64,000 nt of DNA from positions 736,001 to 800,000 of the forward strand of contig OZ245046.1 in NCBI GenBank assembly GCA_965224245.1. Direction: 5' to 3'. The stretch's first letter is position 1. The number at the start of each line of letters is the position of its first letter. Both the position numbers and the translations under genes were made by a program. The notes under the pieces were generated by a model. It was not told where the DNA came from, did not search any database, and worked only from the letters and a program-made list of their open reading frames with translations. Positions 302-43,750 of the stretch are shown here, piece by piece. This DNA is from Candidatus Eiseniibacteriota bacterium. Its GTDB lineage: Bacteria; Eisenbacteria; RBG-16-71-46; CAZAMP01.

Positions 302-636
302 CGGCGGGTTCTACGCCATCACGCGTCGCGATGCCAGAACGAACGCTCGGTCGGGGAGTGGCGTGCGCATAGTCTCTTCCACGGCAGGCGCATACGCTGC
401 CATGGGGTGGGCGGGGACGGCGTGTATCGGTTGCTCTCAACCGGGAGATCGCCGCCACGCGACGTGGGACGGCCGCGGTGGACGCGTCGTCCTCGATGTC
501 GCACCTGAAACCGCGACACACACCGCATGCGGCAAGCTGGTAGAATGTACACCTGGAACACTGGAATGTCGCACCGTCGAAACGTGGGCGGGGGTGCGAC
601 GACTCGGAAGGAGTCCCCCATCTCTGGAGAGCAAAC

Positions 637-2895
637 ATGAACGGTCGGCCCCTCGTTCGTTTCCTCGTGCTGTTCGGCGTCGCGGCCGCAGCAACGGCAG
701 CGCCGGCGTTGGCCGGCGGGGAAACACAATCTGTCGCGCGTCAATGGAACGAGCGCCTGCTCGAAGCGATCCGCGTCGACTTCGCGCGTCCCACAGTTCA
801 CGCACGCAACCTGTTTCACACGTCGGTGGCCATGTACGACGCCTGGGCGGCGTACGACGACGTCGCGGTTCCGTGGTTTCTGGGACGCTGGCGCGGGAGC
901 TATTTCTGTGAGTTCGACGGCGTGCCCGAGCCCGTGGACGTGCAGGCGGCCCGCGAGGAGGCGATCTCGTACGCGACCTACCGGCTGCTGAAGCACCGGT
1001 TCGCCGACTCGCCGGGGGCCGACCGCTCGGTGCCCCAGATCGATTCGCTCTTCGTCGCACTGGGCTACGACTCGCTCTACACCGCGACCGACTACACCGG
1101 CGGCGACGCGGCGGCGCTCGGCAACTACATCGCCGAGAAGCTCATCGACTTCGGTTACCAGGACGGCTCGAACGAGCTGAACGGCTACGAGAACCAGTAC
1201 TACGAGCCGGTGAACGAGCCGCTTCTGCCCGAGCTCCCCGGCAATCCCGACATGGAGTTCCCGAACCGCTGGCAGCCGCTCGGGTTCGACGTGTTCATCG
1301 ACCAGTCCGGGAATCCGATCGCGGACACGGTGCCGCCGTTCCTGAGCCCCGAGTGGGGACAGGTGGTGCCGTTCTCGCTGGACGAGGAGCACCTCACGAT
1401 CTTCCACCGGGACGGGTTCGACTACTGGGTCTACTACGATCCGGGCTTTCCGCCGCCCCTGTTGCCGGTCGGGTACTTCACGCCGCACTACCAGTGGAAC
1501 CACACGCTGGTCGCGATCTGGTCGTCGCACCTCGATCCCGCGGACGGCGTGATGTGGGACATCTCGCCCGCGTCGATCGGCAACATCCAGTACTACCCGA
1601 CCGATCGTGAGGAGCATCCGGACTTCTACGACCTGTACGAGGGCGGTGACCCCGGCATCGGCTGGGATCTGAACCCGGTCACCGGCGAGCCGTACGAGCC
1701 GCAGATCGTCCCGCGGGCCGACTACGCGCGCTGCCTCGCCGAGTTCTGGGCCGACGGACCGAAGTCGGAGACGCCGCCCGGCCATTGGTTCACGATCCTG
1801 AACTACGTAAACGATCATCCGCTGTTCGAGAAGCGCTTCAAGGGCGAGGGCGCGATCCTCGACGAGCTCGAGTGGGACGTGAAGGCGTACTTCATCCTCG
1901 GCGGCACGATGCACGACTGCGCGGTGACCGCATGGGGCATCAAGGGCTGGTACGACTACGTACGTCCGATCTCGGCCATCCGCTACATGAACGAGGTCGG
2001 GCAGTGCACCGATCCCGGTCAGGCGCGGTACGACCTGGCCGGCATGCCGCTCCACCCCGGGTTCGTCGAGGTCGTGGAGGTCGGAGATCCGCTGGCGTCT
2101 GATCCCGAGGCCATCGGTCGCCTGAAGCTCTTCGCGTGGAAGGGACCGGAGTTCATCGAGGACCCGGAGACGGATGTGGCCGGCGTGGACTGGATCCTGG
2201 CCGACAACTGGTGGCCGTATCAGCGACCCACGTTCGTGACGCCACCGTTCGCCGGGTACGTTTCGGGGCACTCGACGTTCTCGCGCGCGGCCGCCGAGGT
2301 CATGACGCTGTTGACCGGCGACGAGTTCTTCCCGGGCGGCATGGGTGAGTTCTTCTGCCCGCAGAACGAGTTCCTGGTCTTCGAGGACGGACCGAGCGTG
2401 GACCTGACGCTCCAGTGGGCCACGTATCGCGACGCATCCGATCAGACCAGCCTGTCGCGGATCTGGGGCGGCATCCACCCGCCGGCCGACGACATTCCGG
2501 GCCGGCTGATCGGCATCGAGCTCGGGCCCGACGCGTTCCACTACGCGGAGGCGTACTTCAACGGCAGTGCGGTCTCAGTGGGGGACGGGAGCGCGCCGAC
2601 GCCGCGTTTCGTCGCCCGGAACGCGCCGAACCCGTTCAACCCGAGGACCACGGTCCGCTACTCGGTGCCCGAGGCGGCCGACATCACGCTCGTCGTGCAC
2701 GACGCGCAGGGTCGCGAGGTGGCGACGCTGGTCACCGGGCCCCGGGACGCCGGGATGCACCAGGTGGTGTGGGACGGCCGGAGCAGCGACGGCCTGAAGG
2801 TCGCCAGCGGCACGTACTTCCTCCAGATGACCGCGGTGACGGCGGCCACCGGTCAGGAGTTCGTCACGTCCGGCAAGATGGTGATGATCAAGTAA
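637..2895 (+). CDS. Secreted vanadium-dependent haloperoxidase/PAP2-superfamily protein with FlgD-Ig/T9SS-type C-terminal domain
   Basis: Signal peptide; KGWYDYVRP, TPPFAGYVSGHSTFS and SRIWGGIHPPAD vanadate/phosphate-site motifs; C-terminal NAPNPFNPRT...WDGRSSDGLKVASGTY; GGAGAG RBS. Confidence 0.8.
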   Translation: MNGRPLVRFLVLFGVAAAATAAPALAGGETQSVARQWNERLLEAIRVDFARPTVHARNLFHTSVAMYDAWAAYDDVAVPWFLGRWRGSYFCEFDGVPEPVDVQAAREEAISYATYRLLKHRFADSPGADRSVPQIDSLFVALGYDSLYTATDYTGGDAAALGNYIAEKLIDFGYQDGSNELNGYENQYYEPVNEPLLPELPGNPDMEFPNRWQPLGFDVFIDQSGNPIADTVPPFLSPEWGQVVPFSLDEEHLTIFHRDGFDYWVYYDPGFPPPLLPVGYFTPHYQWNHTLVAIWSSHLDPADGVMWDISPASIGNIQYYPTDREEHPDFYDLYEGGDPGIGWDLNPVTGEPYEPQIVPRADYARCLAEFWADGPKSETPPGHWFTILNYVNDHPLFEKRFKGEGAILDELEWDVKAYFILGGTMHDCAVTAWGIKGWYDYVRPISAIRYMNEVGQCTDPGQARYDLAGMPLHPGFVEVVEVGDPLASDPEAIGRLKLFAWKGPEFIEDPETDVAGVDWILADNWWPYQRPTFVTPPFAGYVSGHSTFSRAAAEVMTLLTGDEFFPGGMGEFFCPQNEFLVFEDGPSVDLTLQWATYRDASDQTSLSRIWGGIHPPADDIPGRLIGIELGPDAFHYAEAYFNGSAVSVGDGSAPTPRFVARNAPNPFNPRTTVRYSVPEAADITLVVHDAQGREVATLVTGPRDAGMHQVVWDGRSSDGLKVASGTYFLQMTAVTAATGQEFVTSGKMVMIK

Positions 2896-3068
2896 CGGCC
2901 TGCCACCGCCCGATGGGCGCTCTCGGTGCCGGCGAGAGCGCCCGTGTCCGTTTCGGGCCGGGGAGTCTTCCCTCCGTGGACGCTCCCCGGCCTTTCTCGT
3001 GCTCGTTGCGCGCGGACGGATCTCCGGGCTTCCTCGGATCGCAGCCGGCCGGTGCACCCGTCCGATCG

Positions 3069-4502
3069 CTACTCGGTGTCCCCGTGAAGTCGCGCGTGGA
3101 TCGACGGCGACATGTCCGACAGCGCCGGAGTCCGGACGGTCGCATAGTGGCAGTGGCTGCACGTCCCGCGGCGTGGATGCGGTCCCAGGATGCGTGCGAT
3201 GCCGTCACTGGCCGCCGGATCGATCTCGGCTCCGTCCGCGCCGGAGATCGCCTTCCACACGTCCTCGAAGATCCGGTGGGCCAGCTCGAGGTTGTGCACG
3301 CCCAGCTCGACCGTGATCTCGGCCAGGCGGGCCTCGGCGTGGTCGAGCGACGCGGCGGAGACACCTCGATCGCGAAGCGAGTTGATGAGCGCCTCCAGCG
3401 ACGCGCGGCGCATGCGGATGCCCTCCTGCCACCACTCGAGCACGCGATCGTAGCCATCGGGGTGACACGCGATGCACTCCGCGGCTCCCGCGCGCACCGC
3501 ATGGGCCCGCTGGGCGCCGTTCACACCATCCGGCGCGGCGCCCCGATGACACCCGCGGCAGCTCATGCCGTCGAGGAACTTGGCGCTCGGAACCGCGTTC
3601 GTCTCGTCGGCGAGCCCGAGCACGAACCGCTGGATGTCGACGTGCACCTCGTCGTGGCACGAGTGGCATCCCTCGGCCGCCTCCTCGGCCGTCAGCTCGA
3701 TCTCGTGGTCACCGGGATGACAGATCGCACAGTCGAGTGCGACCACGCCGCTCATCGCCTCGATGGCGTGTACCGGTCGCTCATGGCACCGCGTGCAGGA
3801 GAGACCCCGGTGGACGTCGTGAAGCGCCTGCCGATCCGTGGGATCGGCGGTGAGCGTCTCCAGCGGCGACGGCTGGGGACGGGGCGGCCCATCCGCATCG
3901 CTCGTCCACGGCTCCACGTGACACCCGGTGCAGCGTCGCTCGTCGACGTGGGTCTCCACGTTGGCCGCGTCGTAGTGACAGCGCGTGCACGACACCCCGA
4001 GCCGGGCGAAGCGTTCGTGCGGGATCGCGGTCCCGTCGGGCGTCAGCGAGATGTGGGTCGGTGAGATGTGGCACTCGCGACACGCGCTCGGGTCGCGACC
4101 CGATACCGCGTCCGCATGGCAGAGGTAGCACGCGTCGCTGGACCCGGGCAGCCGGACCTCACCGGGTGCGTGCACGTGGCAGTTCGCGCAGGCGGCCCCT
4201 ACGTCGAGGCCCCCGTGGCCCCGATGGCGAAACGTCACGCCGTGCCGCGTCGCGCGATAGGGGCCGCCGTCACTGTGGCATCCCGCGGCCAGACAGGCCC
4301 CGTCCGGCACCGAGGCCCGGTGCGTCGCGATCGACGTGGGACCCTCGTGACACGTCGCGCAGGCCAGCTCGACGTGACCGGACGGTGCGGACTCGCCGGC
4401 GGGCGGCCGCTCGTCGGTGCCGGCGACACAGCCGACGACACCGATCAGCCCCGCCGCCACGGCGGCGGCGGTGAGCACGCGATTCAGGAGATGAGTGCCC
4501 AT
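3069..4502 (-). CDS. Multiheme cytochrome c, 13 heme motifs, probable lipoprotein (477 aa)
   Basis: Start MGTHLLNRV at 4502 within ORF 3069..5438; 12 CxxCH plus CLAAGCH; signal ending LIGVVGC; helical segment with GVHN before last heme. Confidence 0.85.
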   Translation of the reverse strand: MGTHLLNRVLTAAAVAAGLIGVVGCVAGTDERPPAGESAPSGHVELACATCHEGPTSIATHRASVPDGACLAAGCHSDGGPYRATRHGVTFRHRGHGGLDVGAACANCHVHAPGEVRLPGSSDACYLCHADAVSGRDPSACRECHISPTHISLTPDGTAIPHERFARLGVSCTRCHYDAANVETHVDERRCTGCHVEPWTSDADGPPRPQPSPLETLTADPTDRQALHDVHRGLSCTRCHERPVHAIEAMSGVVALDCAICHPGDHEIELTAEEAAEGCHSCHDEVHVDIQRFVLGLADETNAVPSAKFLDGMSCRGCHRGAAPDGVNGAQRAHAVRAGAAECIACHPDGYDRVLEWWQEGIRMRRASLEALINSLRDRGVSAASLDHAEARLAEITVELGVHNLELAHRIFEDVWKAISGADGAEIDPAASDGIARILGPHPRRGTCSHCHYATVRTPALSDMSPSIHARLHGDTE

Positions 4503-5398
4503 AGGATCATCCCGATGACGGCCAGCCCGGAGGCCAGCGCGAGGTGACCGAAGAGCGCCGCCACGAACGTCGTGCGAGGCCCCGGTGCGGGTGCCGGCAG
4601 ATCGGGCCGCTGGTCGTCGCCCGAGGGCGGCAGGTGCGCATGACGGCGGATCGAGTCGGCGATCTCGGGGTGCTCCTCCTCCATGTAGTGCACCGTCGCC
4701 CGACCGGTGAACATGACCGCGTCCATCGGAAACTTGTCGGGGCGGAGGTGCACGTTGAAGAAGTGCACGGCGAACAGGAAGCAGATCGCGATCAGCGCCT
4801 CGTACCCGTGGAAGATCGTCGCCACGTTGAAGATCCAGCCGGGGAGGATCTGCCCGAAGAAGACCGGGAACCACAGGAGCAGGCCGGATCCGCCGATCAC
4901 GACGAACCCCCAGATCTCGCCCCAGTAGTCGAGCTTCTCCATGTAGCTGTATCGCGCGAACGCCGGACGCGGGCCGAGACCGAACATCCAGCGCCACTGC
5001 CTCACGAAGTCGACGACGTCGCGCGGCTGCGGCACCAGCGAGTCGGGCCCCCACAACAATGCCTTCCGGCTGGGCGCCCGCGCGATCTGCAGCCCCACGT
5101 AGACGAAGTGGATCGTGCCGTAGATCAGCGTCAGCGCGCCGGCGATACGATGCAGGATGCCGGCGCGCTCCACGCCACCGATCAGGCTCATCGCGGGCGC
5201 CGCCCACGGCGCCTCGGGGAAGCGCAACGGTAGTCCGGTCGACACGAGGACGTAGAACGTCACGATCGCCAGCGCGTGTGTGATGCGATGGAATCGGTTG
5301 AACCGCCAGACATAGCCGCCGCCGCCGCGCTGGGCGGAGTCCAGCGGTGTGCGTCCCCGCTGATCGGGTCCGTGCGTCTCGGGCAGCGTGGACGTCAT
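4484..5398 (-). CDS. Di-heme cytochrome b membrane subunit (FdnI/HydC-like; resembles the b-domain of CbcL)
   Basis: RFNRFHRITH, ILHRIAG, YSYMEKLDYW, FHGYEA..AVHFFNVHLRPDKFPMD; several TM helices with His ligands; ATGA overlap with upstream cytochrome. Confidence 0.85.
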   Translation of the reverse strand: MTSTLPETHGPDQRGRTPLDSAQRGGGGYVWRFNRFHRITHALAIVTFYVLVSTGLPLRFPEAPWAAPAMSLIGGVERAGILHRIAGALTLIYGTIHFVYVGLQIARAPSRKALLWGPDSLVPQPRDVVDFVRQWRWMFGLGPRPAFARYSYMEKLDYWGEIWGFVVIGGSGLLLWFPVFFGQILPGWIFNVATIFHGYEALIAICFLFAVHFFNVHLRPDKFPMDAVMFTGRATVHYMEEEHPEIADSIRRHAHLPPSGDDQRPDLPAPAPGPRTTFVAALFGHLALASGLAVIGMILWALIS

Positions 5399-6642
5399 GA
5401 CTCCGATCCTCCCGAAGGCAGGTCGCCCGGCGTCTCATGGGCGCCGCGCCGTGCGCGCTCGATGGCGGCCAGGCCGCGCCGGCGCTGGATCATGATCCGG
5501 ATCCACCACACGAGCGTGTGAAGACCGAACACGCCGAGCACGCCGATCAGGAGCACGTTCATGAACACGTAGCTCACGAAGAGCTGCGGGTTCTTGTCGA
5601 AGCTCCTCGGATCGGGATGTGCCTCGAACGCGACGAAGCTCGGTCGGGCCTCGGCGTGGCAGCGGCCGCACGTCGCGACCAGGCGGTCGGGGTGTACGCG
5701 CGAGCCCTCCACGCCGGCGGGCAGGATGTCGTGTGCGCCGTGGCAGTCCGAGCACACCGCCGCCTCGCGGGATCGGAGTCGAGCCGCCTTCGTGTGATAC
5801 GTGTCTCCCGACGTGGCGCCATACTCGGCGTGGCACGCGGCGCAGCGATCGATCTCGTACACGCGGAATCCGTCGTCGCCGGGGCCTCGCATCGGATGCG
5901 CCAGATGGCAGCCGGTGCACGCCGGGGCCGTGTCGGTGGTCGCCGTCAGGTCGGTCACGCCGATCTCGCCCGCGAGCACGGCCTGTCCGTGCACGTCGCG
6001 CCGCCACGTCGCGGCCAGCGAGTCGTGACACGCGCCGCAGGTCTCGACCTGGCGCGCCGGCGAGATCCGGGCCAGCGCGTCGTCGGCCCGCCGGATCGTG
6101 TGCGCCCCGTGGCACTCGTGACATGCGGCCTTCCCGCGGTGCGGATCGGCGTGTCCCGTGGCCGCGGGCGACTCCCGGTGACAGCCGGCGCACGTCGCGT
6201 CGGCGATCAGGCGGTCCTCGTCGGATCCAAGGCGCGCGATCGGCATCACGTCGTGCACGCCGTGACAGCTCTCACAGCTCGCGGCACCCCGGCCGTGGAT
6301 GCTCTCGCTCCAGCCCTCGGCCTCGGAGTCGTGGCAGTCCGCGCAGCTCGGGCGGTCCGGTAGGGGGCGCGCGTGCGGATAGTCGTCGATGCCCTCGTGA
6401 CAGTCGGCGCAGGTGACGTCGGCGTGCACGGATCGAGCGCGCGCCAGCGGGTCCACGTAGTGCCCGCGCGCGGCCGGCCACGACCCGATGCGCGTGGCCA
6501 GGAGCTCGGCGTCGCCGTGACACCGGAGGCAGTCGTCGTCGCCGTTGGACGCGGCGGCCGGCCACGGCGACGGTGCGGTCGCGAGCGCAACGGCGAGCCC
6601 GAGGGCGATTGCGCGTGCTGATGGGGTGGTGGTGCGGCTCAT
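5395..6642 (-). CDS. Multiheme cytochrome c, 11 CxxCH, C-terminal membrane anchor (resembles the c-domain of CbcL; 415 aa)
   Basis: Start MSRTTTPSARAIALG at 6642 (ATGA overlap); signal peptide; repeated CxxCHGxH units; C-terminal TM FMNVLLIGVLGVFGLHTLVWW. Confidence 0.85.
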   Translation of the reverse strand: MSRTTTPSARAIALGLAVALATAPSPWPAAASNGDDDCLRCHGDAELLATRIGSWPAARGHYVDPLARARSVHADVTCADCHEGIDDYPHARPLPDRPSCADCHDSEAEGWSESIHGRGAASCESCHGVHDVMPIARLGSDEDRLIADATCAGCHRESPAATGHADPHRGKAACHECHGAHTIRRADDALARISPARQVETCGACHDSLAATWRRDVHGQAVLAGEIGVTDLTATTDTAPACTGCHLAHPMRGPGDDGFRVYEIDRCAACHAEYGATSGDTYHTKAARLRSREAAVCSDCHGAHDILPAGVEGSRVHPDRLVATCGRCHAEARPSFVAFEAHPDPRSFDKNPQLFVSYVFMNVLLIGVLGVFGLHTLVWWIRIMIQRRRGLAAIERARRGAHETPGDLPSGGSES

Positions 6643-7829
6643 CGTACCCAGGCCCCCAGAGCGATCACGAGCGCCTGACAGGTGCCGTGCGCCAGAAGCG
6701 ATGCCACCCACCCGAATCGCAGGTACAGATACCCCAGAATCAGCGCCGGAGCGGTGGCCGTGGCCGCGAGAAAGCCGGCGGTGGTCGCGGCGTGCGGCAT
6801 GCCCAGCGAGAGAACGCCGGGCAGGTTCGCCAGCGTCTCGATCACCGCGGCGCCGACGATGGCCCCGATCGCGGCCAGGGCGATGGATCGTCGGCTCAGG
6901 CGCTCGAGGATCGTGGTCACGATCGCGAGCCGGAACACCACGCCCAGGATCACGACCTCTCCCACGCCGCGGACGATCGCGTGGGGCAGATCGACGCCGT
7001 CGGCGAACGTGGGGACGAAGCTCGGCGGGCCGTGGAAGAGAAGCACCGACGCGGCCATCAGGACACCCCCGGCCGCCGCCGCCATCAGTCCGACGGCGCG
7101 CATGCCCGCGTCGCCGGCCAGCGTGAGCGACGGAGGGTGCACGAGCCGCGCCCGCCGCCGCAAGCCGAGCGTGACGCCGGGCCCCACGAACCAGGTCACG
7201 ATCACGATCGCCAGGAGGACGAGCGCATCGGCCGGAAGCGAGATCCGGTTCCAGAGCACGCGCGGCCCCGGGCTCACGAGCTCGGCGATCAGGGCGATCA
7301 GCGAGAGGAGGGTGGCCGTCGCCCCGAGGCGCCACTCGGGCCAGCGCCGGAACGCGGTCACGATGGCCCGGGTTCCCTGGACCGCGGCGGTCACCGTGAC
7401 GGCGGCGGCGATGATCCATCCCGACGCGACGGCGACCGTCGGCCCCAGGGCTCCCCGCGCCCAGAGGGTCTCGGTCATGGCGACCACCCCGGCGACGCCC
7501 CAGAGCGCGGCCACCGCCGGCAGGGTGTACATCGACGAGATCCCGACGGCCGTCCACGCCTCGGGGACCGACTTCCAGTGCCGTCGTCCGACGACCCCGA
7601 GGAAGGCGCCGTGCAGGAGGCCGATCAGCGCCCCCACGAAGAACCGGACGCTGCTGTCGAGCCAGATCGCGGACGGGGTTTCGGCCGAGGCGCCGAAGAA
7701 CGCCGGCCAGACGCCGCCGACGACGATTCCGCCCGCGGACGTCCAGGAGACGACGACCGCCCCGGTCAGCCCGACCTCGCGCACCATGCGGTGCGCCGCC
7801 ATCTGGCGATGCGTGATCGTCGTGGACAT
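6639..7829 (-). CDS. Polytopic membrane protein with degenerate CPBP (Abi/CAAX protease)-like C-terminal domain
   Basis: Many TM helices; VVFRL, ETLANLP and ILGYLYLRFGWVASLLAH resemble CPBP motifs; GGAGAGG RBS. Confidence 0.6.
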   Translation of the reverse strand: MSTTITHRQMAAHRMVREVGLTGAVVVSWTSAGGIVVGGVWPAFFGASAETPSAIWLDSSVRFFVGALIGLLHGAFLGVVGRRHWKSVPEAWTAVGISSMYTLPAVAALWGVAGVVAMTETLWARGALGPTVAVASGWIIAAAVTVTAAVQGTRAIVTAFRRWPEWRLGATATLLSLIALIAELVSPGPRVLWNRISLPADALVLLAIVIVTWFVGPGVTLGLRRRARLVHPPSLTLAGDAGMRAVGLMAAAAGGVLMAASVLLFHGPPSFVPTFADGVDLPHAIVRGVGEVVILGVVFRLAIVTTILERLSRRSIALAAIGAIVGAAVIETLANLPGVLSLGMPHAATTAGFLAATATAPALILGYLYLRFGWVASLLAHGTCQALVIALGAWVR

Positions 7830-7876
7830 GACCTCTCCGATGTGACGAAGCCAACCACGCTATCGGCCGCCCGGGG

Positions 7877-7902
7877 TCGTGGAAAATACGGACTTTCCAC
7901 GA
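7877..7902. promoter_or_regulatory. Inverted repeat TCGTGGAAA-N8-TTTCCACGA in the divergent promoter of the cytochrome island (candidate operator)
   Basis: Perfect 9-bp arms, AT-rich in a GC-rich background, between divergent starts 7829 and 7954. Confidence 0.55.
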
Positions 7903-7953
7903 GGCGACGGTGCGTCATGATGACGGGCTTCTCGGCGACCTCCGGAGGCGGAC

Positions 7954-9282
7954 GTGGTCTTCACGACGCGGCATCCGACCGCGACGACCCTCATCGGGAC
8001 GATCGTGCTCGTTCTGGGTGCGGGGACGACCGCCCTGGTCACGCTGTCCCACCGGGAATCCTTGACCAACGATCGGTTCTGCGTCTCGTGCCATCCGTCC
8101 GACGTCCATGCGTCGCTCGGGATCGGGGGGCACGAGCTGTCCTGCGCGAGCTGTCACGCCAGCACGCGCCTGGACGCCGCGGTGCTCGGACTGGCCCGTC
8201 TCGTCGGCGCCCGCGGCATGGATGCCACGCACGGCGAGGTTCCGGACGCCGGGTGCGTCTCCTGCCACGTCGATGGACGCGAGGAGGAGGGGCTGATCGG
8301 ACGATCACCCGGCCATCTCGCCCACCTGAGGCCGCCCGCACGCGCGCGGGCGGAGGCGGGGCTCCACTGCGTGCGGTGTCACCACGCGTCGGGCAGTCGT
8401 CCGGATGCGCTGGACTGCCGGAGCTCCGGGTGTCACGAGCTCGTCCGCGATCGACTCGGCGACATGGTGCTGGAGTCCGACGTCGAGTGCATGGTCTGTC
8501 ACGAGTTCACGTCGGCCCCACACGCGCCGGCGTTCGCGGCCACCGGCGACCACCCCGCACGTCCACCCATGGACGCGCTCTTCGAGACCGGGCGGCGTCC
8601 TCACGAGGCGTGCCTCGGCTGTCACGCCGGGCAGCGCCGCACCGACGTCGCGTTCGTGGGCGACCTCGCGCACGGCGGCCTCTGCGCCGCGTGTCACGAC
8701 CCGCATCGGGACACCGACCCGGTCGACGCGTGGCGTTCGTGCGCGGGCCTCGGCTGCCACGCCAGCGCGTCGCGGGAGTCGGCCTTTCACCGGGGACTCG
8801 CCCCCGACGTGCTGCCCGACTGCTCCCGCTGCCACGAGCACCACACGTGGTTCGCGGCGGGCGGGGACTGTGCCGCCTGCCACGCTCCATCCGCCCTCGT
8901 CCCGGGAGCGGTGTTCTCGCACGCCCGGCACACCGAGCTCGGGTGCGAGCGCTGCCATCGCGGGGCCGGGGAGAGCGGGACGCATGGCGAGCTCCGCGTC
9001 TGGCAGCGGGAGGACTGCATGGCGTGCCACGCGTCACACCATCGCCCCGAGGCGTCGTGCCGGAGCTGCCATCCCGCCGCTCGCGTGGCCGGGCACACGG
9101 ACGCGGCGCACGCCGGGTGCTCGGGGACCGGTTGCCACACGACGACGGTGCTGGCGCAGCTCCGGCCCACGCGGCCGGTGTGTCTGGTGTGCCACCAGGA
9201 CCGGGTCGATCACGAGGTGGAGGACAGCTGCGTGGACTGCCACGACGTCGAGGGCTTTCCGTCGGCGGCGAGTGGAGACTAG
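7954..9282 (+). CDS. Membrane-anchored multiheme cytochrome c, 17 heme motifs, NapC/NirT-like N-terminus
   Basis: N-terminal TM then LTNDRFCVSCH; 14 CxxCH plus 3 CX4CH in 442 aa; GGAGG RBS before GTG. Confidence 0.88.
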   Translation: MVFTTRHPTATTLIGTIVLVLGAGTTALVTLSHRESLTNDRFCVSCHPSDVHASLGIGGHELSCASCHASTRLDAAVLGLARLVGARGMDATHGEVPDAGCVSCHVDGREEEGLIGRSPGHLAHLRPPARARAEAGLHCVRCHHASGSRPDALDCRSSGCHELVRDRLGDMVLESDVECMVCHEFTSAPHAPAFAATGDHPARPPMDALFETGRRPHEACLGCHAGQRRTDVAFVGDLAHGGLCAACHDPHRDTDPVDAWRSCAGLGCHASASRESAFHRGLAPDVLPDCSRCHEHHTWFAAGGDCAACHAPSALVPGAVFSHARHTELGCERCHRGAGESGTHGELRVWQREDCMACHASHHRPEASCRSCHPAARVAGHTDAAHAGCSGTGCHTTTVLAQLRPTRPVCLVCHQDRVDHEVEDSCVDCHDVEGFPSAASGD

Positions 9283-9465
9283 GTCCGGCGGCCCGCTCGG
9301 CCTTGCGCCGGCGCCCCGCGCTCGGGCTCGACGCGGTCCCGGACCGGCCCGCCGCCTCGCACGATCCCTGCTTGACCCGGCGCTCCGATCCGCGAGACAG
9401 TGTCCCACTTCGATGCCCCGGCGCCTCGTCGGAGTCCGATCCGTTCCTGAGCCAGTGGAGAGCTC

Positions 9466-11040
9466 GTGAAGCCCCAAACCCGTTTTCCATCTACGGTTTA
9501 CAACATCATCAGCCTCGTCGGCCTTGCGGTCGCGCTGTTCGGCCTGGCCGCCATCCTGATCCTGTACGTGCTCTCGTCCCTGGGGGGCTCCAACCCCTAC
9601 CTGGGGATCGTGATGCTCGTCGTGCTGCCCGCGATCATGGTCGTCGGCCTCCTCCTGATCCCCGTCGGCATGTGGCGGGAGCGGCAGCTGCGGCTCTCGG
9701 GCCGCCGCAAGGCGCTGATCATCAACGTGGCCAAGCGCGGTCACCGCAACGCGATCATCACGTTCGGGGTCGGCACCAGCATCTTCCTGTTCCTGACCAC
9801 CATCGGCATGTTCGAGACGTACGAGTTCACCGAGTCCAGCACGTTCTGCGGCGAGGTTTGCCACACGACGATGGCGCCCGAGTACACCGCGTGGCACGAG
9901 TCGCCGCACGCGCGCGTGGGGTGTGTCGACTGTCACGTGGGCGAGGGGTTCGACTGGTTCGTGAAGGCGAAGATCAGCGGCGTGCGGCAGGTCTGGCAGA
10001 TGGTCAATCGCAGCTGGCCCACGCCCATCCCCACGCCGATCCACGATCTGCGTCCCGCACGCGAGACCTGCGAGCACTGCCACTGGCCGGGCAAGTCCTA
10101 CGCATCGAAGGAGATCGTCCGCGATTACTTCCTCGGTGACGAGGCCAACACGCACTGGCGAATCCGGCTCCTGTTGCACGTGGGCGAGACGTCCACCCAG
10201 TCCGGACGGCGGGCCTGGGGCATTCACTGGCACGTGGATCCGCGCAACCGCGTCGAGTACGTGGCCGGCGACGACAAACGTCTGTCGGTCTCGCAGGTCA
10301 CCTGGTGGCAGAACGGAGAGCCGGTCGTCTACTCCGAGACCGGCCAGCCGCTCTCGCCGGACGAGATCGTGGAGGCCGAGCTCGAGGGCCGCGTGCGCAC
10401 GATGGACTGCATCGACTGCCACAATCGTCCCGCGCACGTCTACCTGCCGCCCACGCTGGCCGTGAACGGGGCGCTGTCCCACGGGGCGCTCGATCGGGAC
10501 CTGCCGTTCGCGAAGCGCGAGGCGGTCCGGGCGCTCTCGGCCGCATACGGCACCCGCGACGCCGGGCGCGACTCGATCCGGACCGTGCTCGAGCGCGTGT
10601 ACGCCGACATCGGCATCGACGTGCCCCAGAGCGCGGTGGCGGCGGTGATCGATCTCTACGAGCGAAACATGTTCCCGGAGATGGGTGTGCGCTGGAACGA
10701 GTACCCGGTGCACAACAGCCACATGGAGAGCCCGGGGTGCTTCCGGTGCCACGGCTCGAACCTGCGCAACGCGGCCGGCGAACGCATTCGCGACGACTGC
10801 GATCTCTGTCACAAGATCATCGCCCAGGGCCCGGTCGAGGACGACCACGAGTTCGGCCCGTCGCACTGGACCGGAGTCGACGAGGCCGTGACCGGCGTCG
10901 AGTTCGAGCATCCGATCTCGATCGACGGCGCACAGCGCGAGATGCGGTGCTGGGAGTGTCACTCCGGGGACGACTCGATCTATCTCGAAGGCGTCCCAAC
11001 GATTCCGAACGCGGCTCTGACCGCCGAGGTCGCGCCGTGA
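9466..11040 (+). CDS. NapC/NirT-family quinol-oxidising heptaheme cytochrome c, ImcH-like
   Basis: Three N-terminal TM helices with NPYLGI; TESSTFCGEVCH, SPHARVGCVDCHVG, LRPARETCEHCHWP, GIHWHV, RTMDCIDCHNRPAH, PGCFRCH; 7 heme motifs. Confidence 0.85.
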   Translation: MKPQTRFPSTVYNIISLVGLAVALFGLAAILILYVLSSLGGSNPYLGIVMLVVLPAIMVVGLLLIPVGMWRERQLRLSGRRKALIINVAKRGHRNAIITFGVGTSIFLFLTTIGMFETYEFTESSTFCGEVCHTTMAPEYTAWHESPHARVGCVDCHVGEGFDWFVKAKISGVRQVWQMVNRSWPTPIPTPIHDLRPARETCEHCHWPGKSYASKEIVRDYFLGDEANTHWRIRLLLHVGETSTQSGRRAWGIHWHVDPRNRVEYVAGDDKRLSVSQVTWWQNGEPVVYSETGQPLSPDEIVEAELEGRVRTMDCIDCHNRPAHVYLPPTLAVNGALSHGALDRDLPFAKREAVRALSAAYGTRDAGRDSIRTVLERVYADIGIDVPQSAVAAVIDLYERNMFPEMGVRWNEYPVHNSHMESPGCFRCHGSNLRNAAGERIRDDCDLCHKIIAQGPVEDDHEFGPSHWTGVDEAVTGVEFEHPISIDGAQREMRCWECHSGDDSIYLEGVPTIPNAALTAEVAP

Positions 11041-12122
11041 GGGCTCGCCATCGTTCCCGGATCCCCGGGGTCGAGATCTCCTTCGGAGCGATCCCGGCGG
11101 GAGCGATCGTCGCGGCGACCATCCTCGTGATCGGCGCCGGGTGCGGCCCCGTCGATCACACCGCCGGTGAGGCGGCGCCCGCGGACACGCTGGCCGATCT
11201 GTCGCCGTCCGAGCGTCCCGCCGGGTCGCCGCGGATGGAGGCGCTCTTCCGATCCGCCGCGGCCGGGACGTTCGACGAGGATCCGCATCGCTTCGAGTGT
11301 GCGCGATGCCACACGGGAGAGTCCGATCCGGAGGACCGGACGCTGTGGCGATTCCGGTGCCAGACGTCGGACTGTCACCCCCGGGCATGGACGGAGACCG
11401 TCTACCACCGGCTCGCACCCTCCACGTTCACGGTCTGCGTGAACTGTCACGTGCCGCACGTGTGGACCGCGAACGGCGAGGATTGCCGATCCTGTCACGG
11501 CGACATGAACGGTCCCCGGGGATCGGTCGAGCAGCACGTCCTGGCCACGTCGAAGCACTTCGAGCACTCGCTCCACTGGGACGTGGACTGCCGCCGGTGC
11601 CACGAGACGAAGAGCCACCACGCGTCGCGCGGACCCGCGTCGTCGGCCACGTGCATGTCGTGTCACCACGGTACCCAGATGAGCGCCGACTGCTCGAGCT
11701 GCCACGACCCGGGGAGCATCGCCCCGCTGGTGACCACGCGGGTGGCGTTCGACATCGGCGGCACCGAGTACGACCGCGAGGTGTCGTTCCCGCATCCGAT
11801 CCACGTGGATCTCGAGTGCTCGGACTGCCACACGTCACGCGAGAACGTGCGTGACGTGGAGGCGTGCGTGTCCTGCCACGACTTCCATCACGACCCCGGC
11901 GCGTCGTGCGTGTCGTGTCACACGCCCCCGCCGAGCGACGCGCACGACGTCGAGGTGCACGAGGAAGCCTGCTCGTCGTGCCACGAGCGGACCGAGTTCG
12001 ACGCGGCCTCGTTGAGCCGGGAGGTCTGCCTCGTGTGCCACCGGGCGCCGCCCGATCACGACCTCGAGGACGAAGAGGCGTGCACGTCGTGTCACGACAT
12101 GCCGGAGCGGAGTCTGGACTGA
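11037..12122 (+). CDS. Multiheme cytochrome c, 13 heme motifs, probable lipoprotein (361 aa)
   Basis: GTGA overlap with upstream stop; signal ending ILVIGAGC; 12 CxxCH plus CQTSDCH; colinear with C-terminal half of 7954..9282. Confidence 0.85.
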   Translation: MRARHRSRIPGVEISFGAIPAGAIVAATILVIGAGCGPVDHTAGEAAPADTLADLSPSERPAGSPRMEALFRSAAAGTFDEDPHRFECARCHTGESDPEDRTLWRFRCQTSDCHPRAWTETVYHRLAPSTFTVCVNCHVPHVWTANGEDCRSCHGDMNGPRGSVEQHVLATSKHFEHSLHWDVDCRRCHETKSHHASRGPASSATCMSCHHGTQMSADCSSCHDPGSIAPLVTTRVAFDIGGTEYDREVSFPHPIHVDLECSDCHTSRENVRDVEACVSCHDFHHDPGASCVSCHTPPPSDAHDVEVHEEACSSCHERTEFDAASLSREVCLVCHRAPPDHDLEDEEACTSCHDMPERSLD

Positions 12123-12170
12123 GCGGTTTCGCTCGGGGAGCGCGCCGGTGCGCGCCCCCCGGGATCGCGC

Positions 12171-14147
12171 CTAGCGCACCCGCACGATCCGCTCGCTGGT
12201 GACGGCCCGATCCGCCTCGAGCGTCACGTAGTACACGCCCGGCGCCGCCGGATGCCCGTCCTCGCCGAGGCCGTCCCACGCGAGCCGGAGCGTCCCCACG
12301 TCGATCGGCCCGCGGTGAACCGTGGCCACTTGCCGTCCCGTCGTGTCGTAGAGCCGCACCGTCGCGTCGTCGTACGGGCGACCGCTCCGGAGCTCGATCG
12401 AGACCACGCCCGCCGAGGGCTGGGGCGCCACCCGCGTCACCCGTGCGGTGACCGCCGATGCGACGTCGGGCGTCCCGACCGCGGTGACCTCCTCGTGCCA
12501 GTCGAGGATCCAGTTGTCGGGATCGAACACGATCGCCGTCGGCGTTCCGGTCAGGACGTCGAGCGTGAAGACCTGATACGGTGCGTCGTTCCAGATCGTG
12601 AATCGCTCGGTGCCCGAGGTCGTGACCACGTCGACCTCGATCGGCATCGTGAACAGGTTGGACTGCTGCTGATCGAGGGTCAGGACCACGTCGCCGGCTC
12701 CGTCGACCGTATACGCATACTGGTAGTCGGGACGACCGGGTCCGTAGATCCACTCGTCGAAGAAGTACGACAGATCCTGTCCGCTCCGCGACTCCATCAC
12801 GGCCTGGAGATCCTCGGTGGTCGCATGGGAGTACGCGTGCGCCGCGCGGTAGTCCAGAACGCCGGCCCAGAAGTCGTCCTCACCCAAGACGCCGCGCAGC
12901 ATGTGCACGACCCATGCGCCCTTGCGATACACGACGCCCGAGAAGATCTCCCATGGGTTCGTCAGGTCGTAGCGATACACTGGTGTGTCGAAGCCGTCGG
13001 GATCGTCGATCCAGTCCATGTAGTCCGCGTAGCCCCCGGGCACCTGGGATCCGTACCAGACGCCCTCCGACCAGGTCGCGAACCCCTCGTTGAGCCAGAT
13101 GTGCCCCCAGTCGGCGCACGTGACGAGATCGCCCCACCACTGATGTGCCAGCTCGTGCGCGATGATGAGCTCCGAGCCGACGCAGCAGGAGCCCATGGAC
13201 GTCATCGTCTGGTGCTCCATCGCGCCGCCGAACGGAAACTCCACCATCCCGTAGCGTTCGGCCAGGAACGGGTACTCGCCGAACACGGTCCGGTAGAGCT
13301 CGATCTGCTCGGCCACGACCGGCCACGAGGAGAGCGATTCGCTCTCGTCCTCGGGGTACACGTAGTACTCGAGCGGCATCTCGGTGCCGTCGCCCGCGAC
13401 GTAGATGTCCGTCCAGGTCGTGAAGTTCGTGACGGTCGCCGCGATCAGATACGTCGCGATCGGATAGTCGGTGTGGTGCCGGTACGTCTTCGTGGCGCCG
13501 TCGTCGTCGACGCCGACGAGGAGACCGTTCGAGACGGCGACGTACTCGGACGGCACGGTGATCGCGACGTCACACGTGGCCTTGTCGGTCGGGGTCTCCT
13601 TGCACGGCCACCACGTGCGGGCGAACCAGGGCTCGCTCAGTGATGCCGCCAGCGGCGTGCCCGCGTGCGTGTCGAAGACGAAGCTCTGGAGGCCTTCCTC
13701 GGGCGGCGTGCCGTTGTACGCGATCGTGATCGCGAACGCGTCGTCCTCGCTCATCGCGGCGTCGAGGGTGATCGACACGCGGTGATCGGCGCGCGTGAAG
13801 GTGAGGGGAGTGCCGTCGTGATCGATGGACGTGATCGTCAGATCGTCATGAAGATCGATCGGCACCGACAGGAGGTTCGGGATCAGGCTGACCGCCGAGA
13901 TCGTACAGGCCCCGTCCACCGTGTGCGCGTCGAGGTCGATCGCGAGATCGAGATCGTAGTGCTGCACGTCGAACGTGGTGACGGGCGGCGGAGGCCCCAG
14001 CACCGCGGCTCGGAGACGCTCGGACTTGATGGCGCTACAGCCCTGCGAGGGATCGAGATCAGCAAGGCTCGGCACCTCGGCGCGTGCGGCGACCGCCGCG
14101 ATCAGGAGAACCGTCGAGAGCATGGGGAAGGCGCGCGAGACGCACAT
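12171..14147 (-). CDS. Secreted M1-family aminopeptidase with T9SS/FlgD-type C-terminal domain
   Basis: GAMEHQT and HELAHQWWG...WLNEGFA zinc motif; VYRKGAWVVHMLR; start ATG 14147 with GAGGAG RBS; C-terminal WDGLGEDGHPAAPGVY. Confidence 0.9.
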   Translation of the reverse strand: MCVSRAFPMLSTVLLIAAVAARAEVPSLADLDPSQGCSAIKSERLRAAVLGPPPPVTTFDVQHYDLDLAIDLDAHTVDGACTISAVSLIPNLLSVPIDLHDDLTITSIDHDGTPLTFTRADHRVSITLDAAMSEDDAFAITIAYNGTPPEEGLQSFVFDTHAGTPLAASLSEPWFARTWWPCKETPTDKATCDVAITVPSEYVAVSNGLLVGVDDDGATKTYRHHTDYPIATYLIAATVTNFTTWTDIYVAGDGTEMPLEYYVYPEDESESLSSWPVVAEQIELYRTVFGEYPFLAERYGMVEFPFGGAMEHQTMTSMGSCCVGSELIIAHELAHQWWGDLVTCADWGHIWLNEGFATWSEGVWYGSQVPGGYADYMDWIDDPDGFDTPVYRYDLTNPWEIFSGVVYRKGAWVVHMLRGVLGEDDFWAGVLDYRAAHAYSHATTEDLQAVMESRSGQDLSYFFDEWIYGPGRPDYQYAYTVDGAGDVVLTLDQQQSNLFTMPIEVDVVTTSGTERFTIWNDAPYQVFTLDVLTGTPTAIVFDPDNWILDWHEEVTAVGTPDVASAVTARVTRVAPQPSAGVVSIELRSGRPYDDATVRLYDTTGRQVATVHRGPIDVGTLRLAWDGLGEDGHPAAPGVYYVTLEADRAVTSERIVRVR

Positions 14148-14236
14148 GGCGCAACTCCTCGAGGAGGCAGGGGGGGATGTCCGGCGAGAATCGCCAACGG
14201 AACCCTCCACGATGCGCCGGGCGGGTCGAGCGCCGC

Positions 14237-14274
14237 AATCGTGGGTTCCCCGTATGTACGGGGATTCCACGATT
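14237..14274. promoter_or_regulatory. 38-bp imperfect palindrome in divergent promoter (candidate operator)
   Basis: AATCGTGG-GT-TCCCCGTA-TG-TACGGGGA-TT-CCACGATT between divergent M1 peptidase and LVIVD genes. Confidence 0.5.
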
Positions 14275-14407
14275 CAACCGGACCGGCACCCATCTAGAAT
14301 GATCGGTCGAATTGTGGTCGCCGCTGCTCGCATCCGCACTCGCGGGTCGGCGTCGCGCCGATCCCGGCTGTGGGCGCAATGGATCGACTCCAGACCGGGA
14401 GGAGCTC

Positions 14408-16642
14408 ATGGGGTCCCTCGCTCGCCTGCCGCGCCCGGTGCTCCACGCCGCCACCGGCGTCGCGTGCGGTATCGTGGTCACGTTCGTCACACCCGGGACC
14501 GCGTCCGCCGACGGCGCCTGCTTCAACTACCTCGAGAGCCTCCGTTGGTCGGTCGCGGATGCCTCTCTCGGCTACGTGGAAGAGACGGCACTCGTCGGAG
14601 ACCGGCTCTACGCGCTGAGCACGTATCCCACGGTGCTGCACGTTCTCGACGTCGGCGATCCGGACGCGCCGGTCGAGCTGGGGTCGCTCGGGCTCGCCGG
14701 CGAAGGAGAGGCGGACTACCGGCTCCACGTCGATGGATCTCTCGTCTACGTCCCGCGTCCGACCGGCCTCTGGATCGTGGACGTGTCGGATCCCACCGAC
14801 CCGACCCTGCGGGGACAGGTCACGACCGGCGCCCCGGCCTACGACGTGACGGTCGTGGCCAGCCATGCTTACGTGTCCTACGGCCACTCCGCCACATCGC
14901 TCGGACTCGGGGTCGTGGACGTCTCCGATCCCGACGCCCCCACGCTCGTCACGGAGCTCGAGCGCCCGGCGTGGTCTCCGGTCCTCGCGGTGAGTGGCTA
15001 CGTCGTCGTTGCGAAGGACGAGGGCCTCGACGTGCTGGATGTCTCCGATCCGAGCGCGCCGACGCCCGCCGAGACCTGGGCGCTGGGAGGCCCCGCCGTC
15101 GACCTCGACGTCCGGAACGGGCGCCTGTACGCCGTGGCGAACACCGAGCTGACCGTGCTCGACGTGACCACCCCGACGACGCTGAGCTTCGTCGCGTCGT
15201 TCGACGTCGAGCTTCCGGTGTCGCGACTCGCCGTGGACGACACCAGCGCGTACGTGATCGTCGATCACGGAATGGTGTACGCCAGCCGGCTCGTGATCGT
15301 CGGTCTCCTGGGAGGCCCCCACGCGGTGGGCGCGATCGCGGCGCCCGACTACGCGAACGGCGTCACCGTCGGCTCCGAGCGGGCCTACGTCGGCGGCCAG
15401 GATGCGGGACTCCTCGTCGCCGATCTCCGGTACCCGGGCACCGCGCCGAAGGTGGGCCACCTGGCGACCGCGTTTCCGGTCGCGGACGTGGTCGTCGCGC
15501 ACCCGTACGCCTACGTGGCCGGCGGCTTCGGGGGTGGGCTGGGTGTGATCGACATCTCCACGCCCACCGCGCCCACCGCGGTGGGCAACCTGACGACGCT
15601 GGGGACCGCGATCCGGGTGGCCGTATCGGGACCGATCGCGGCGCTGTCCGACGACCAGACGTTGCGCATCGTCGACGTCTCGGCTCCGGCGAGCCCGACC
15701 GAGATGGGGTCGGTTGCGCTGCCCTCCACCGCACGAGGCTCGGAGTTCGACGGCGGCATCGTGTTCGTGGCCGCCGACGACGCGGGGCTTCAGGTCGTCG
15801 ACGCCTCGACCCCCGAGGCGCCGTCGATCTGCGCGTCGATCGCGTCACCCGATGGCGCCTACGACGTCGCACTCCACGGCAACTACGTCTACCTGGCCAC
15901 CGAGGCCCGCACGCTGATGGTGGTGGACGTAACCGATCCCTGCATGCCGGCGCTCGTGACGAGCGTTCCCACGCCGGGCTATGCGTACGTCGTGCACGTC
16001 CTCGGCGACCGGGCGTACGTCGGCGACTCGACCGGCCTGACGATCTTCGACCTGACCGACCCGGCAGCGCCGAAGCTCGAGAGCTCGCTGGCCACCGGGG
16101 CTGTCTGGGGCATCCAGGTCCGGGGGTGGTACGCCTACCTGATCGGCCCCACCGGGATGCGGGTCGCGTACGTGGCCGACGAGATGAGCCCGGCGCTGAT
16201 GGGCGGGGTGACGTCGAACGCGTTCGCACGTGGCGTCGGGGTGACGGACACACACGTGTTCGTGGCCGACCAGGGTGACGGCCTCGCCGTCTACGAGATC
16301 GAGTGCGAGGGTGTGGTGCCGATCCTGGAGCCCGCGGACCATCCATCGCTCACACCCGCGCGCACGTGGCTCGGCACCGCGGCGCCGAACCCGTTCAACC
16401 CCATCACGCGGATCGCGTTCGCGGTGCGAGACCGCGATCCACTGAGCCTCGCGATCTACGACACGGCGGGCCGCCTGGTGCGACGTCTAGCAGATGGGCG
16501 TTCGCTCGCGCCCGGCACCTACGACGCACGGTGGGACGGACGGGACGACGCCGGTCGCGCGGCCCCGAGCGGGACGTACGTCGTCCGGCTCTGGACGCGG
16601 CGAGGGATCGACGAGCATCGGAAGATCTCGCTGATCCGGTGA
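14408..16642 (+). CDS. Secreted LVIVD-repeat beta-propeller protein with FlgD-Ig/T9SS-type C-terminal domain
   Basis: Many repeats such as GLWIVDVSDPTDP, GLGVVDVSDPDAP, GLGVIDISTPTAP; C-terminal AAPNPFNP...WDGRDDAGRAAPSGTY; GGAGG RBS before ATG 14408. Confidence 0.85.
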   Translation: MGSLARLPRPVLHAATGVACGIVVTFVTPGTASADGACFNYLESLRWSVADASLGYVEETALVGDRLYALSTYPTVLHVLDVGDPDAPVELGSLGLAGEGEADYRLHVDGSLVYVPRPTGLWIVDVSDPTDPTLRGQVTTGAPAYDVTVVASHAYVSYGHSATSLGLGVVDVSDPDAPTLVTELERPAWSPVLAVSGYVVVAKDEGLDVLDVSDPSAPTPAETWALGGPAVDLDVRNGRLYAVANTELTVLDVTTPTTLSFVASFDVELPVSRLAVDDTSAYVIVDHGMVYASRLVIVGLLGGPHAVGAIAAPDYANGVTVGSERAYVGGQDAGLLVADLRYPGTAPKVGHLATAFPVADVVVAHPYAYVAGGFGGGLGVIDISTPTAPTAVGNLTTLGTAIRVAVSGPIAALSDDQTLRIVDVSAPASPTEMGSVALPSTARGSEFDGGIVFVAADDAGLQVVDASTPEAPSICASIASPDGAYDVALHGNYVYLATEARTLMVVDVTDPCMPALVTSVPTPGYAYVVHVLGDRAYVGDSTGLTIFDLTDPAAPKLESSLATGAVWGIQVRGWYAYLIGPTGMRVAYVADEMSPALMGGVTSNAFARGVGVTDTHVFVADQGDGLAVYEIECEGVVPILEPADHPSLTPARTWLGTAAPNPFNPITRIAFAVRDRDPLSLAIYDTAGRLVRRLADGRSLAPGTYDARWDGRDDAGRAAPSGTYVVRLWTRRGIDEHRKISLIR

Positions 16643-19234: not shown

Positions 19235-19248
19235 CCATCCGGGTGACC
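19225..19248 (+). repeat. 12-bp tandem duplication ATCCGGGTGACC x2 spanning the MscS stop codon
   Basis: Exact direct repeat, 19225-19236 and 19237-19248. Confidence 0.8.
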
Positions 19249-19258
19249 GCCCAGTATC

Positions 19259-19286
19259 GAACTTCCAGCGTGCGACTGTCCTCTGA
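19259..19286 (+). promoter_or_regulatory. Candidate sigmaE/ECF-type promoter GAACTT-N17-TCTGA
   Basis: Matches the classical RpoE -35/-10 consensus, about 110 bp upstream of the M23 peptidase start. Confidence 0.5.
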
Positions 19287-42937: not shown

Positions 42938-42947
42938 CGTGGAGCTC

Positions 42948-43732: not shown

Positions 43733-43750
43733 GTTCGTCGACCTCGTCCG

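Follow-up and report, generated by a model that had tools for sequence, protein, structure and literature searches.

Of the routes by which electrons leave the quinone pool in metal-respiring Geobacter, those through ImcH and CbcL have been studied best. Purified ImcH oxidizes menaquinol and releases protons to the periplasm, and in G. sulfurreducens it is reported to pass electrons to periplasmic PpcA (preprint, 10.1101/2023.05.03.539133). In the survey by Zhong & Shi (2018; PMC6295460), ImcH is so far linked solely with quinol oxidation and is recognized by three N-terminal helices, an adjoining atypical heme-binding motif (CX3CH) and six CX2CH motifs; members of its Geobacter group have 495-519 residues and are 31.5-49% identical to the remaining members. 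The same source describes the CbcL/MtoC/MtrH family as joining a periplasmic c domain with 3-23 CX2CH motifs to a HydC/FdnI-like b domain. CbcL is reported to have 9 hemes and to carry electrons from its b hemes to its periplasmic c hemes (PMC9129911). Here we describe relatives of both proteins encoded back to back in a 9-kb island of an uncultured, soil-type Candidatus Eiseniibacteriota bacterium. The island lies on contig OZ245046.1 (assembly GCA_965224245.1; C1 below), in the 64,000-nucleotide stretch that was analyzed as a whole and is called the window (C1:736001-800000; ~70% GC). The genome comprises 6.94 Mb in 27 contigs and is 97% complete. Coordinates given without a contig name are window positions.

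On balance, and with modest confidence, we favor a reading in which the island's genes specify two separate inner-membrane quinol:cytochrome c oxidoreductases, and each of these has a very large periplasmic acceptor of its own. Its parts belong to known families and their combination is lineage-specific, so this is a result at the level of annotation and not a new mechanism. Translation and motif counts place seven genes in two divergent runs, A-B-C-D on the minus strand and E-F-G on the plus strand:

A, 7829..6639, minus strand: 396 amino acids (aa), polytopic, ~10 hydrophobic segments, no heme motif; first gene of the minus-strand operon
B, 6642..5395, minus strand: 415 aa, 11 CXXCH, Sec-type signal, single C-terminal transmembrane (TM) helix
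C, 5398..4484, minus strand: 304 aa, 5 TM helices, cytochrome b
D, 4502..3069, minus strand: 477 aa, 12 CXXCH and 1 CX4CH, lipobox VVGC
E, 7954..9282, plus strand: 442 aa, 14 CXXCH and 3 CX4CH, single N-terminal TM helix
F, 9466..11040, plus strand: 524 aa, 6 CXXCH and 1 CX3CH, 3 TM helices
G, 11037..12122, plus strand: 361 aa, 12 CXXCH and 1 CX4CH
Palindrome, 7877..7902, no strand: perfect palindrome TCGTGGAAA-N8-TTTCCACGA in the 124-base divergent spacer between A and E; arms of 9+9 nucleotides, 8-base spacer, 100% complementary

Our recount agrees with an earlier note on this DNA, made from the sequence alone, which had tallied 61 heme motifs (13+11+17+7+13) in five c-type cytochromes, beside a cytochrome b, in back-to-back gene runs. 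Six of the seven genes were in that note, and A had been missed. Overlaps of 4 bases join A/B, B/C and F/G, and one of 19 bases joins C/D; a gap of 183 bases separates E from F. Third-position GC of the motif-bearing parts is 0.86-0.91, and the whole 6.94-Mb genome has 37 stop-to-stop frames with at least three CXXCH, 5 of the 37 within the island; together these figures indicate that the motif count is not due to chance. Genes for cytochrome c maturation are present in the genome. The catalytic heme motif of NrfA-type enzymes, CXXCK, was not found in any of the five cytochromes, which rules out reading them as catalytic multiheme enzymes of that type.

The ImcH-like and CbcL-like cytochromes

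The features of F support its assignment to the ImcH family, the seven-heme, inner-membrane, quinol-oxidizing type, as the earlier note had proposed. Hydropathy peaks at residues 17-35, 48-66 and 97-115 mark three N-terminal TM helices. An atypical CGEVCH motif (CX3CH) stands near helix 3 at residue 128, and CXXCH motifs follow at residues 153, 202, 315, 425, 445 and 495. This layout, and a length in the region of 500-520 residues, are shared with ImcH (GSU3259). F aligns at 36% identity over residues 6-501 (95% of its length; E = 6e-110) with a protein of Geomonas (Geobacteraceae), which served as proxy for the Geobacter ImcH group in place of GSU3259 itself, and this value falls within the range given for ImcH. 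In an alignment of 22 sequences, all 22 share the seven heme motifs as well as E123, H133, K169 and Q175. In purified ImcH, heme 1 is surrounded by H137, Q179, E127, K173 and Y188 (10.1101/2023.05.03.539133). Judged by spacing from the heme-1 histidine, and not by alignment to GSU3259, E123, K169 and Q175 of F correspond to ImcH E127, K173 and Q179. F is NapC/NirT-like around hemes 1-3 and, by this spacing, appears to keep the Glu, Lys and Gln around heme 1. It differs from ImcH in its replacement of a conserved Tyr by Trp, in not being the genome's closest copy, and in its gene neighborhood: F is flanked by 17- and 13-heme proteins and not by the frequent four-heme neighbor, a c554-like protein of ~200 aa that adjoins ImcH-like genes in 40 loci (tblastn) and is absent from the island.

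Other assignments of F were considered. F scores 35.3 bits on PF03264, and its scores on the equivalog models lie below the cutoffs for both NrfH (50.6 bits vs 134.2) and NapC/NirT (23.5 vs 310.6); a sequence search of the PDB with F returned NrfH as its sole match (E = 0.023). The earlier note had named grouping with NrfH/NapC, or with the FdnI/HydC subunit of a soluble enzyme, as evidence that would count against it. No such grouping was found, the scores being far under the cutoffs in each case. In a FastTree phylogeny of 166 family members (no NrfH outgroup, no bootstrap), F sits in an 8-row clade with support of 100 that is confined to this phylum and two other genomes. Together with the Geomonas row and a second ImcH from the same genome as F, this group is nested in a 73-row clade with support of 95.

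Relatives of the F type are very widespread. At least 4999 were found among 8000 candidates scored, and a contig search of 185,579 species genomes matched at least 595 stretches, with a relative confirmed in 585 of the 595. The labels of 80 loci with F relatives are Bacteroidota, Ignavibacteria, Calditrichota, Zixibacteria, Latescibacterota, Gemmatimonadaceae, Verrucomicrobiota, Acidobacteriaceae and Geomonas. A metagenome scan with F gave 80 loci, none above 43% identity, and added no close synteny.

B and C together are best described as a split cytochrome bc of the CbcL/MtoC/MtrH family, an assignment that the sequences support, with B as the c half and C as the b half. The 11 CXXCH motifs of B lie inside the family's range of 3-23, and B matches the c3, c7 and MtrC-domain families of Pfam. 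Its TM helix (residues 354-372) and the five of C make six, the number usual for the family; we assume that the helix of B packs on C as FdnH does on FdnI. The b-domain histidines H41, H83, H197 and H212 of C are invariant in a 60-row alignment (C and 59 homologs). As the earlier note had it, the pair is CbcL-like: a single 409-aa open frame of Geomonas aligns with residues 280-397 of B (43% identity) and with residues 31-244 of C (50%), and this is a fused Geobacteraceae protein used for the CbcL comparison instead of GSU0274. Like CbcL (GSU0274), MtoC and MtrH, B and C combine a periplasmic multiheme c protein with a HydC/FdnI-like di-heme b protein, have six TM helices and keep the His ligands. 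They differ from CbcL in having 11 hemes against 9, and the c and b domains are not in one polypeptide; they are encoded by two genes. They are also preceded by the orphan membrane protein A, followed by the 13-heme D and placed on a long phylogenetic branch.

For comparison within the phylum we used 206 species genomes of one class, namely the window's genome and 205 others (genomes and their loci carry the handles G and L below). The class relatives of C are 49% (L187) and 46% (L189) identical to it. C scores 29.0 bits on Ni_hydr_CYTB (PF01292), slightly below the cutoff of 30.1, and 30.3 and 30.1 bits on two FdnI equivalog models (cutoffs 341 and 115.85). No match to C was found in a PDB sequence search. 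Given scores so far under the equivalog cutoffs and the lack of a catalytic subunit in the flanks, we ruled out C as the FdnI/HydC subunit of a soluble enzyme; Pfam annotation of the flanking genes revealed no formate dehydrogenase or hydrogenase subunits.

Both families are represented elsewhere on the same contig. A second ImcH at C1:1,422,748-1,424,268 matches the Geomonas ImcH (over 1,422,798-1,424,261) at 39% identity, compared with 36% for F, and a fused CbcL with 19 CXXCH at C1:1,130,223-1,131,392 matches the Geomonas CbcL fragment at 47%, compared with 41% for C. F and the second ImcH are 39% identical, and C and the b domain of the fused copy 41%. By these identities, the island's ImcH and CbcL are second, more divergent paralogs. 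The locus of the fused copy (L178, C1:1,128,442-1,133,224) encodes the 19-CXXCH CbcL-like protein, then an 8-heme membrane-anchored cytochrome and a four-cluster ferredoxin-type protein. At C1:448,068-451,414, two adjacent frames with 16 and 26 CXXCH contain repeated MtrA/DmsE-like segments, and one of them has a weak N-terminal match to NapC/NirT.

The large cytochromes, protein A and the divergent spacer

D is built of c7/c3-type modules, with matches to both families, and its lipobox (V-V-G-C) fits the usual pattern. The corresponding sequence of G, G-A-G-C, is imperfect, and a lipobox was seen in 3 of the 11 G relatives examined. The earlier note had put a probable 13-heme lipoprotein at the end of both arms, and this is therefore firm for D only. 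Proteins resembling D at 23-35% identity occur in 63 of the 205 other phylum genomes. One genome (G107, contig C3, locus L188) has a NapC/NirT-type anchor with a D-like module fused behind it, an arrangement in keeping with D being the first to accept electrons from a quinol oxidase. D is likely to be the periplasmic acceptor of B and C.

The fused protein itself, encoded at positions 7609-9438 of L188, has 609 aa and combines the NapC/NirT-like anchor with an 18-heme D-like module; genes for an 8-heme cytochrome, an iron-sulfur protein and a polytopic membrane protein follow. Frames resembling it are found in many genomes of the families f9 and f8.

G, made of c7-type modules, is likely to be the acceptor of F. 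A search of 1.84 billion representatives gave 15 relatives of G at E <= 1e-30, whereas a module consisting of its final ~190 residues is present in 273 proteins at E <= 1e-10. A profile of the G family matches the dodecaheme GSU1996 (3ov0; 7.7e-18), the 16-heme 1z1n (6e-12), HmcA, nine-heme cytochromes and c7/c3 chains. GSU1996 is rod-shaped. An AlphaFold2 (AF2) model of G (predicted local distance difference test, pLDDT, 66.5; predicted template modeling score, pTM, 0.41) was too poor for a comparison of shapes and found nothing in Foldseek at E <= 0.001, the top match being GSU1996 at 0.013. In addition to these profile matches, CX4CH motifs typical of c3 are present, and D matches c7. The likeness to GSU1996 is at the level of modules only, and G differs in having 13 hemes and a membrane or lipid anchor.

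E, with a TM helix at residues 13-31, is partly a paralog of G: its C-terminal half (residues 243-432) is 31% identical to G. To this E adds a unique 8-heme N-terminal half, which sets it apart from GSU1996 and the Hmc proteins. Neither full-length E nor its N-terminal 240 residues were found in any of the 205 other phylum genomes. A 93-residue match to MccA (E = 0.0026) reflects heme packing. We considered E as a third quinol oxidase of the NapC/NirT type and did not accept this, the match reaching 17 bits against 24.1 and covering the spanning helix and first heme only.

Protein A has no Pfam family, either by itself or in any of the four members of its family. Only three relatives were found in 5.8 billion protein clusters (55, 30 and 30% identity), and none in the 205 other phylum genomes. 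The residues invariant in the four members include H73, R82, R300, R313 and H381, of which H73 and H381 are membrane histidines. A CPBP-type protease was rejected as an identity for A (17.5 bits vs a cutoff of 75, and no Pfam match in the four members). A predicted complex of A with C scored 0.01 against a mark of 0.32.

The palindrome at 7877-7902, between the two runs, is a candidate operator. It occurs once in the 6.94-Mb genome, as does its core GGAAA-N8-TTTCC, and this single occurrence rules it out as the site of a regulon. As RNA it folds no better than shuffled sequences (z = -1.26). A scan for sigma-70 promoters gave 0 sites, and a terminator scan gave 2 sites vs 1.3 expected, both intragenic. 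No Rfam match was obtained in window positions 1-16000.

Relatives of the two arms and an outer-membrane conduit

To place the island among other loci, we collected 165 in which an F relative was matched over at least 420 residues, counting relatives of B and C at 80 bits or more. A CbcL-like gene stands beside the ImcH-like gene in 58 of these 165 loci, and in 37 of the 80 for which at least 4 kb are present on both sides. Of the 58 paired loci, 42 have the c half fused to the b half and 16 have the two split. The C relative is on the strand of F in 57 of the 58 and on the opposite strand in 1; where the strand is shared it lies upstream of F in 47 loci, mostly within 400 bases, and downstream in 10. 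The pairing is common and not special, and it is the island's divergent layout that is unusual. D. acetexigens is reported to express consecutively numbered ImcH and CbcL homologs on electrodes (PMC12133095). A literature search by titles and abstract openings listed no paper describing ImcH-CbcL gene linkage as such.

Relatives within the phylum do not conserve the arrangement as a whole, a finding that the earlier note had named as evidence against its proposal. One genome (G006, L187) has a fused counterpart of B and C (35% and 49% identity) followed by a 21-heme D-like lipoprotein (29%), and another (G021, L189) has a split B, C (46%) and a D-like gene in succession; neither has a match to F at E <= 1e-20. 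Orthologs of F at 47-53% identity occur in G008, G028, G035, G022, G040, G029 and G015, with G-like genes (33-40%) near them in L171, L173, L174 and L191. G-like genes are found in 5 of the 205 other genomes (G008, G022, G035, G040 and G015), all five of which have an ImcH of the F clade, and none of the five has a D-like match. The B-C-D arm and the F...G arm recur in different genomes, so the two arms can travel separately, and conservation lends no support to the integrated module that had been proposed. What sets the island apart is the divergent layout, the union of arms that are separate in relatives, and the presence of the 17-heme E and protein A, each found in 0 of 205. The nearest named homologs are labeled Candidatus Eisenbacteria and Gemmatimonadota, in line with the FCB-type lineage suggested in the earlier note.

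That note also found no porin or catalytic reductase in the island, and the Pfam annotation of the flanks agrees: the neighboring genes encode secreted enzymes, a peptidase, an LVIVD-repeat protein, a major facilitator superfamily transporter and MscS, with no porin and no catalytic reductase among them. An outer-membrane conduit was sought in the rest of the genome, and a likely one was identified 0.68 Mb away. At C1:1,427,889-1,428,659 the DmsE/MtrA model TIGR03508 matches over model positions 2-257 with 168.9 bits, below the cutoff of 192.2. Directly downstream of this MtrA-like decaheme is a 522-aa protein with a signal peptide and no Pfam match; the Pfam model MtrB_PioB (PF11854) has no match in the genome. 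An AF2 model of this protein from 40 sequences (pLDDT 85, pTM 0.75) is a barrel of 26 strands. MtrB has 26 strands, and Foldseek places MtrB (6r2q_B) first (E = 5.4e-17, query TM-score 0.74), followed by TonB-dependent receptors (5.8e-10, TM-score 0.51). The barrel family has 142 members, labeled Gemmatimonadota and Candidatus Eisenbacteria, and PF11854 is annotated on 4 of 120 among the matches listed. MtrB-like barrels at E <= 1e-20 occur in 21 of the 205 other genomes.

The structural model indicates that the genome does encode an MtrAB-like outer-membrane conduit, so the part of the earlier proposal that concerned extracellular electron transfer is not refuted. The pair resembles MtrAB, MtoAB and PioAB (6R2Q) in the succession of an MtrA-like decaheme and a 26-strand barrel that has MtrB as its best structural match. 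It differs from them in lying outside the island, in the length of the barrel (522 aa vs 649 for the MtrB chain), in not reaching the MtrB_PioB model, in a decaheme under the family cutoff, and in that no MtrC/OmcA-type decaheme was found beside the pair. The best evidence that F and G act with an outer-membrane conduit comes from G008 (L171), where a single strand carries an F ortholog (51%), a 4-heme cytochrome, an MtrA-like 11-heme protein (59% identical to the MtrA-like protein of the window's genome), the barrel (54% identical to the 522-aa protein), a 6-heme lipoprotein, a 9-heme lipoprotein and a G-like gene. The MtrAB-like pair thus stands there in one cluster with the orthologs of F and G.

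In the window's genome the pair belongs to a larger locus (L177, C1:1,421,978-1,432,350) that encodes a 4-heme c554-like protein, the second ImcH, a 582-aa protein of no assigned function, the MtrB-like barrel, the MtrA-like decaheme, a Rieske protein, a cytochrome b and an 11-heme protein. Zhong & Shi (2018) reported no mtrAB beside imcH in their set (PMC6295460).

Two further groups of genes in the window were observed. Four large secreted proteins (637-2895, 12171-14270, 14312-16642 and 19180-22047) share a C-terminal FlgD-Ig-like domain; they are haloperoxidase-like, an M1 peptidase, an LVIVD-repeat protein and an M23/HYR protein, and the FlgD-Ig-like end resembles a common sorting or anchoring tag. 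At 40124-46122 on the minus strand, type IV pilus or pseudopilin-like genes (N-terminal methylation motif, PilX_N) adjoin a gene for a 946-aa protein with fibronectin-III domains.

Possible routes of electron flow

On the reading we favor, both arms would move electrons out of the quinone pool. C, a five-helix di-heme b protein of the FdnI/HydC fold, and B, with its 11 hemes and one C-terminal helix, would oxidize membrane quinol together, and electrons would pass from the b hemes to the periplasmic c hemes and on to the 13-heme lipoprotein D. A would be a membrane protein from the same transcript as B-C-D. By analogy with ImcH, F may oxidize menaquinol at an NrfH-like pocket beside its CX3CH-bound first heme, with protons released to the periplasm, and conduct electrons along its seven hemes to the 13-heme G. 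The membrane-anchored 17-heme E probably also receives electrons. D, G and E, presumably co-transcribed with the oxidases and their direct partners, would take the place of Geobacter's small PpcA as candidate acceptors, and electrons could then reach the MtrAB-like conduit and thence extracellular acceptors. Given the conduit in the genome and the L171 cluster, extracellular electron transfer by the island is plausible, if unproven.

Several observations weigh against this reading. The conserved Tyr of ImcH (Y188) is Trp in F (W184). A tree of 81 b-domain segments groups C with L187 and L189 on a long branch but gives no support for any wider placement. The other copies in the genome are the better matches to the Geomonas ImcH and CbcL, so the island copies may have diverged in role. 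The island itself encodes no porin, MtrA-like protein or terminal reductase, and the MtrAB-like pair is ~2 kb from the second ImcH and not beside F. Of the five genomes with G-like genes, only two (G008 and G035) have the barrel at E <= 1e-20. Relatives of CbcL such as MtoC are also reported from iron oxidizers (PMC6295460).

Some of the same facts would suit a periplasmic hub or store of electrons, in which the large multiheme proteins act as a capacitor or feed soluble reductases, as CymA does in Shewanella. The island has neither an outer-membrane part nor a reductase; G-like genes occur in G022, G015 and G040 without an MtrB-like match, the G family resembles the periplasmic GSU1996, HmcA and nine-heme cytochromes, and the genome encodes many other multiheme proteins. 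However, the orthologs of F and G stand with MtrA-like and MtrB-like genes in one strand-continuous cluster in L171, the lipobox of D is of a kind often seen in surface or outer-membrane cytochromes, and CXXCK is absent from the five proteins, and we regard a hub as unlikely. Electrons could also run the other way, into the quinone pool from a donor such as Fe(II), reduced humics or a cathode, as proposed for MtoC and CymA in iron oxidizers. MtoC of Fe(II) oxidizers belongs to the CbcL family, in which Zhong & Shi (PMC6295460) found nothing at the sequence level to tell quinol oxidation from quinone reduction; the other locus couples the MtrAB-like pair to genes for a Rieske protein and a cytochrome b. 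This direction seems to us quite improbable for the island, since ImcH has so far been tied to quinol oxidation solely (PMC6295460) and in G. sulfurreducens delivers electrons to PpcA (10.1101/2023.05.03.539133).

An integrated switch between two potentials, closest to what the earlier note had envisaged, would have the ImcH arm serve high-potential and the CbcL arm low-potential acceptors under shared divergent control. ImcH and CbcL are reported to divide the work by potential in Geobacter (PMC5322298), and the 124-base control region with its genome-unique palindrome could be common to both arms. Yet the arms occur apart in relatives, 57 of the 58 other paired loci have both genes on one strand, which suggests co-expression and not alternation, ImcH and CbcL are both present twice in the genome, and potential dependence is not readable from sequence at 36-50% identity. 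We consider a switch very unlikely. A more elaborate version of the favored two-oxidoreductase reading, which we put forward as decidedly speculative, is that E and the anchored D and G form a fixed periplasmic heme wire from both quinol oxidases to the MtrAB-like conduit, replacing small soluble shuttles such as PpcA-type cytochromes or the 4-heme neighbor; A, with its two invariant membrane histidines, would then add a new subunit to the split CbcL complex, and one genome-unique operator would govern all.

The island shows a little-known candidate phylum, represented here by 206 species genomes, rebuilding the ImcH/CbcL core with very large cytochromes of its own. If D, E and G are confirmed as partners of the two quinol oxidases, the island would be a compact case of electrons crossing the periplasm without small soluble carriers, and the organism would belong to a candidate electroactive lineage for iron and humic cycling in soils and sediments.

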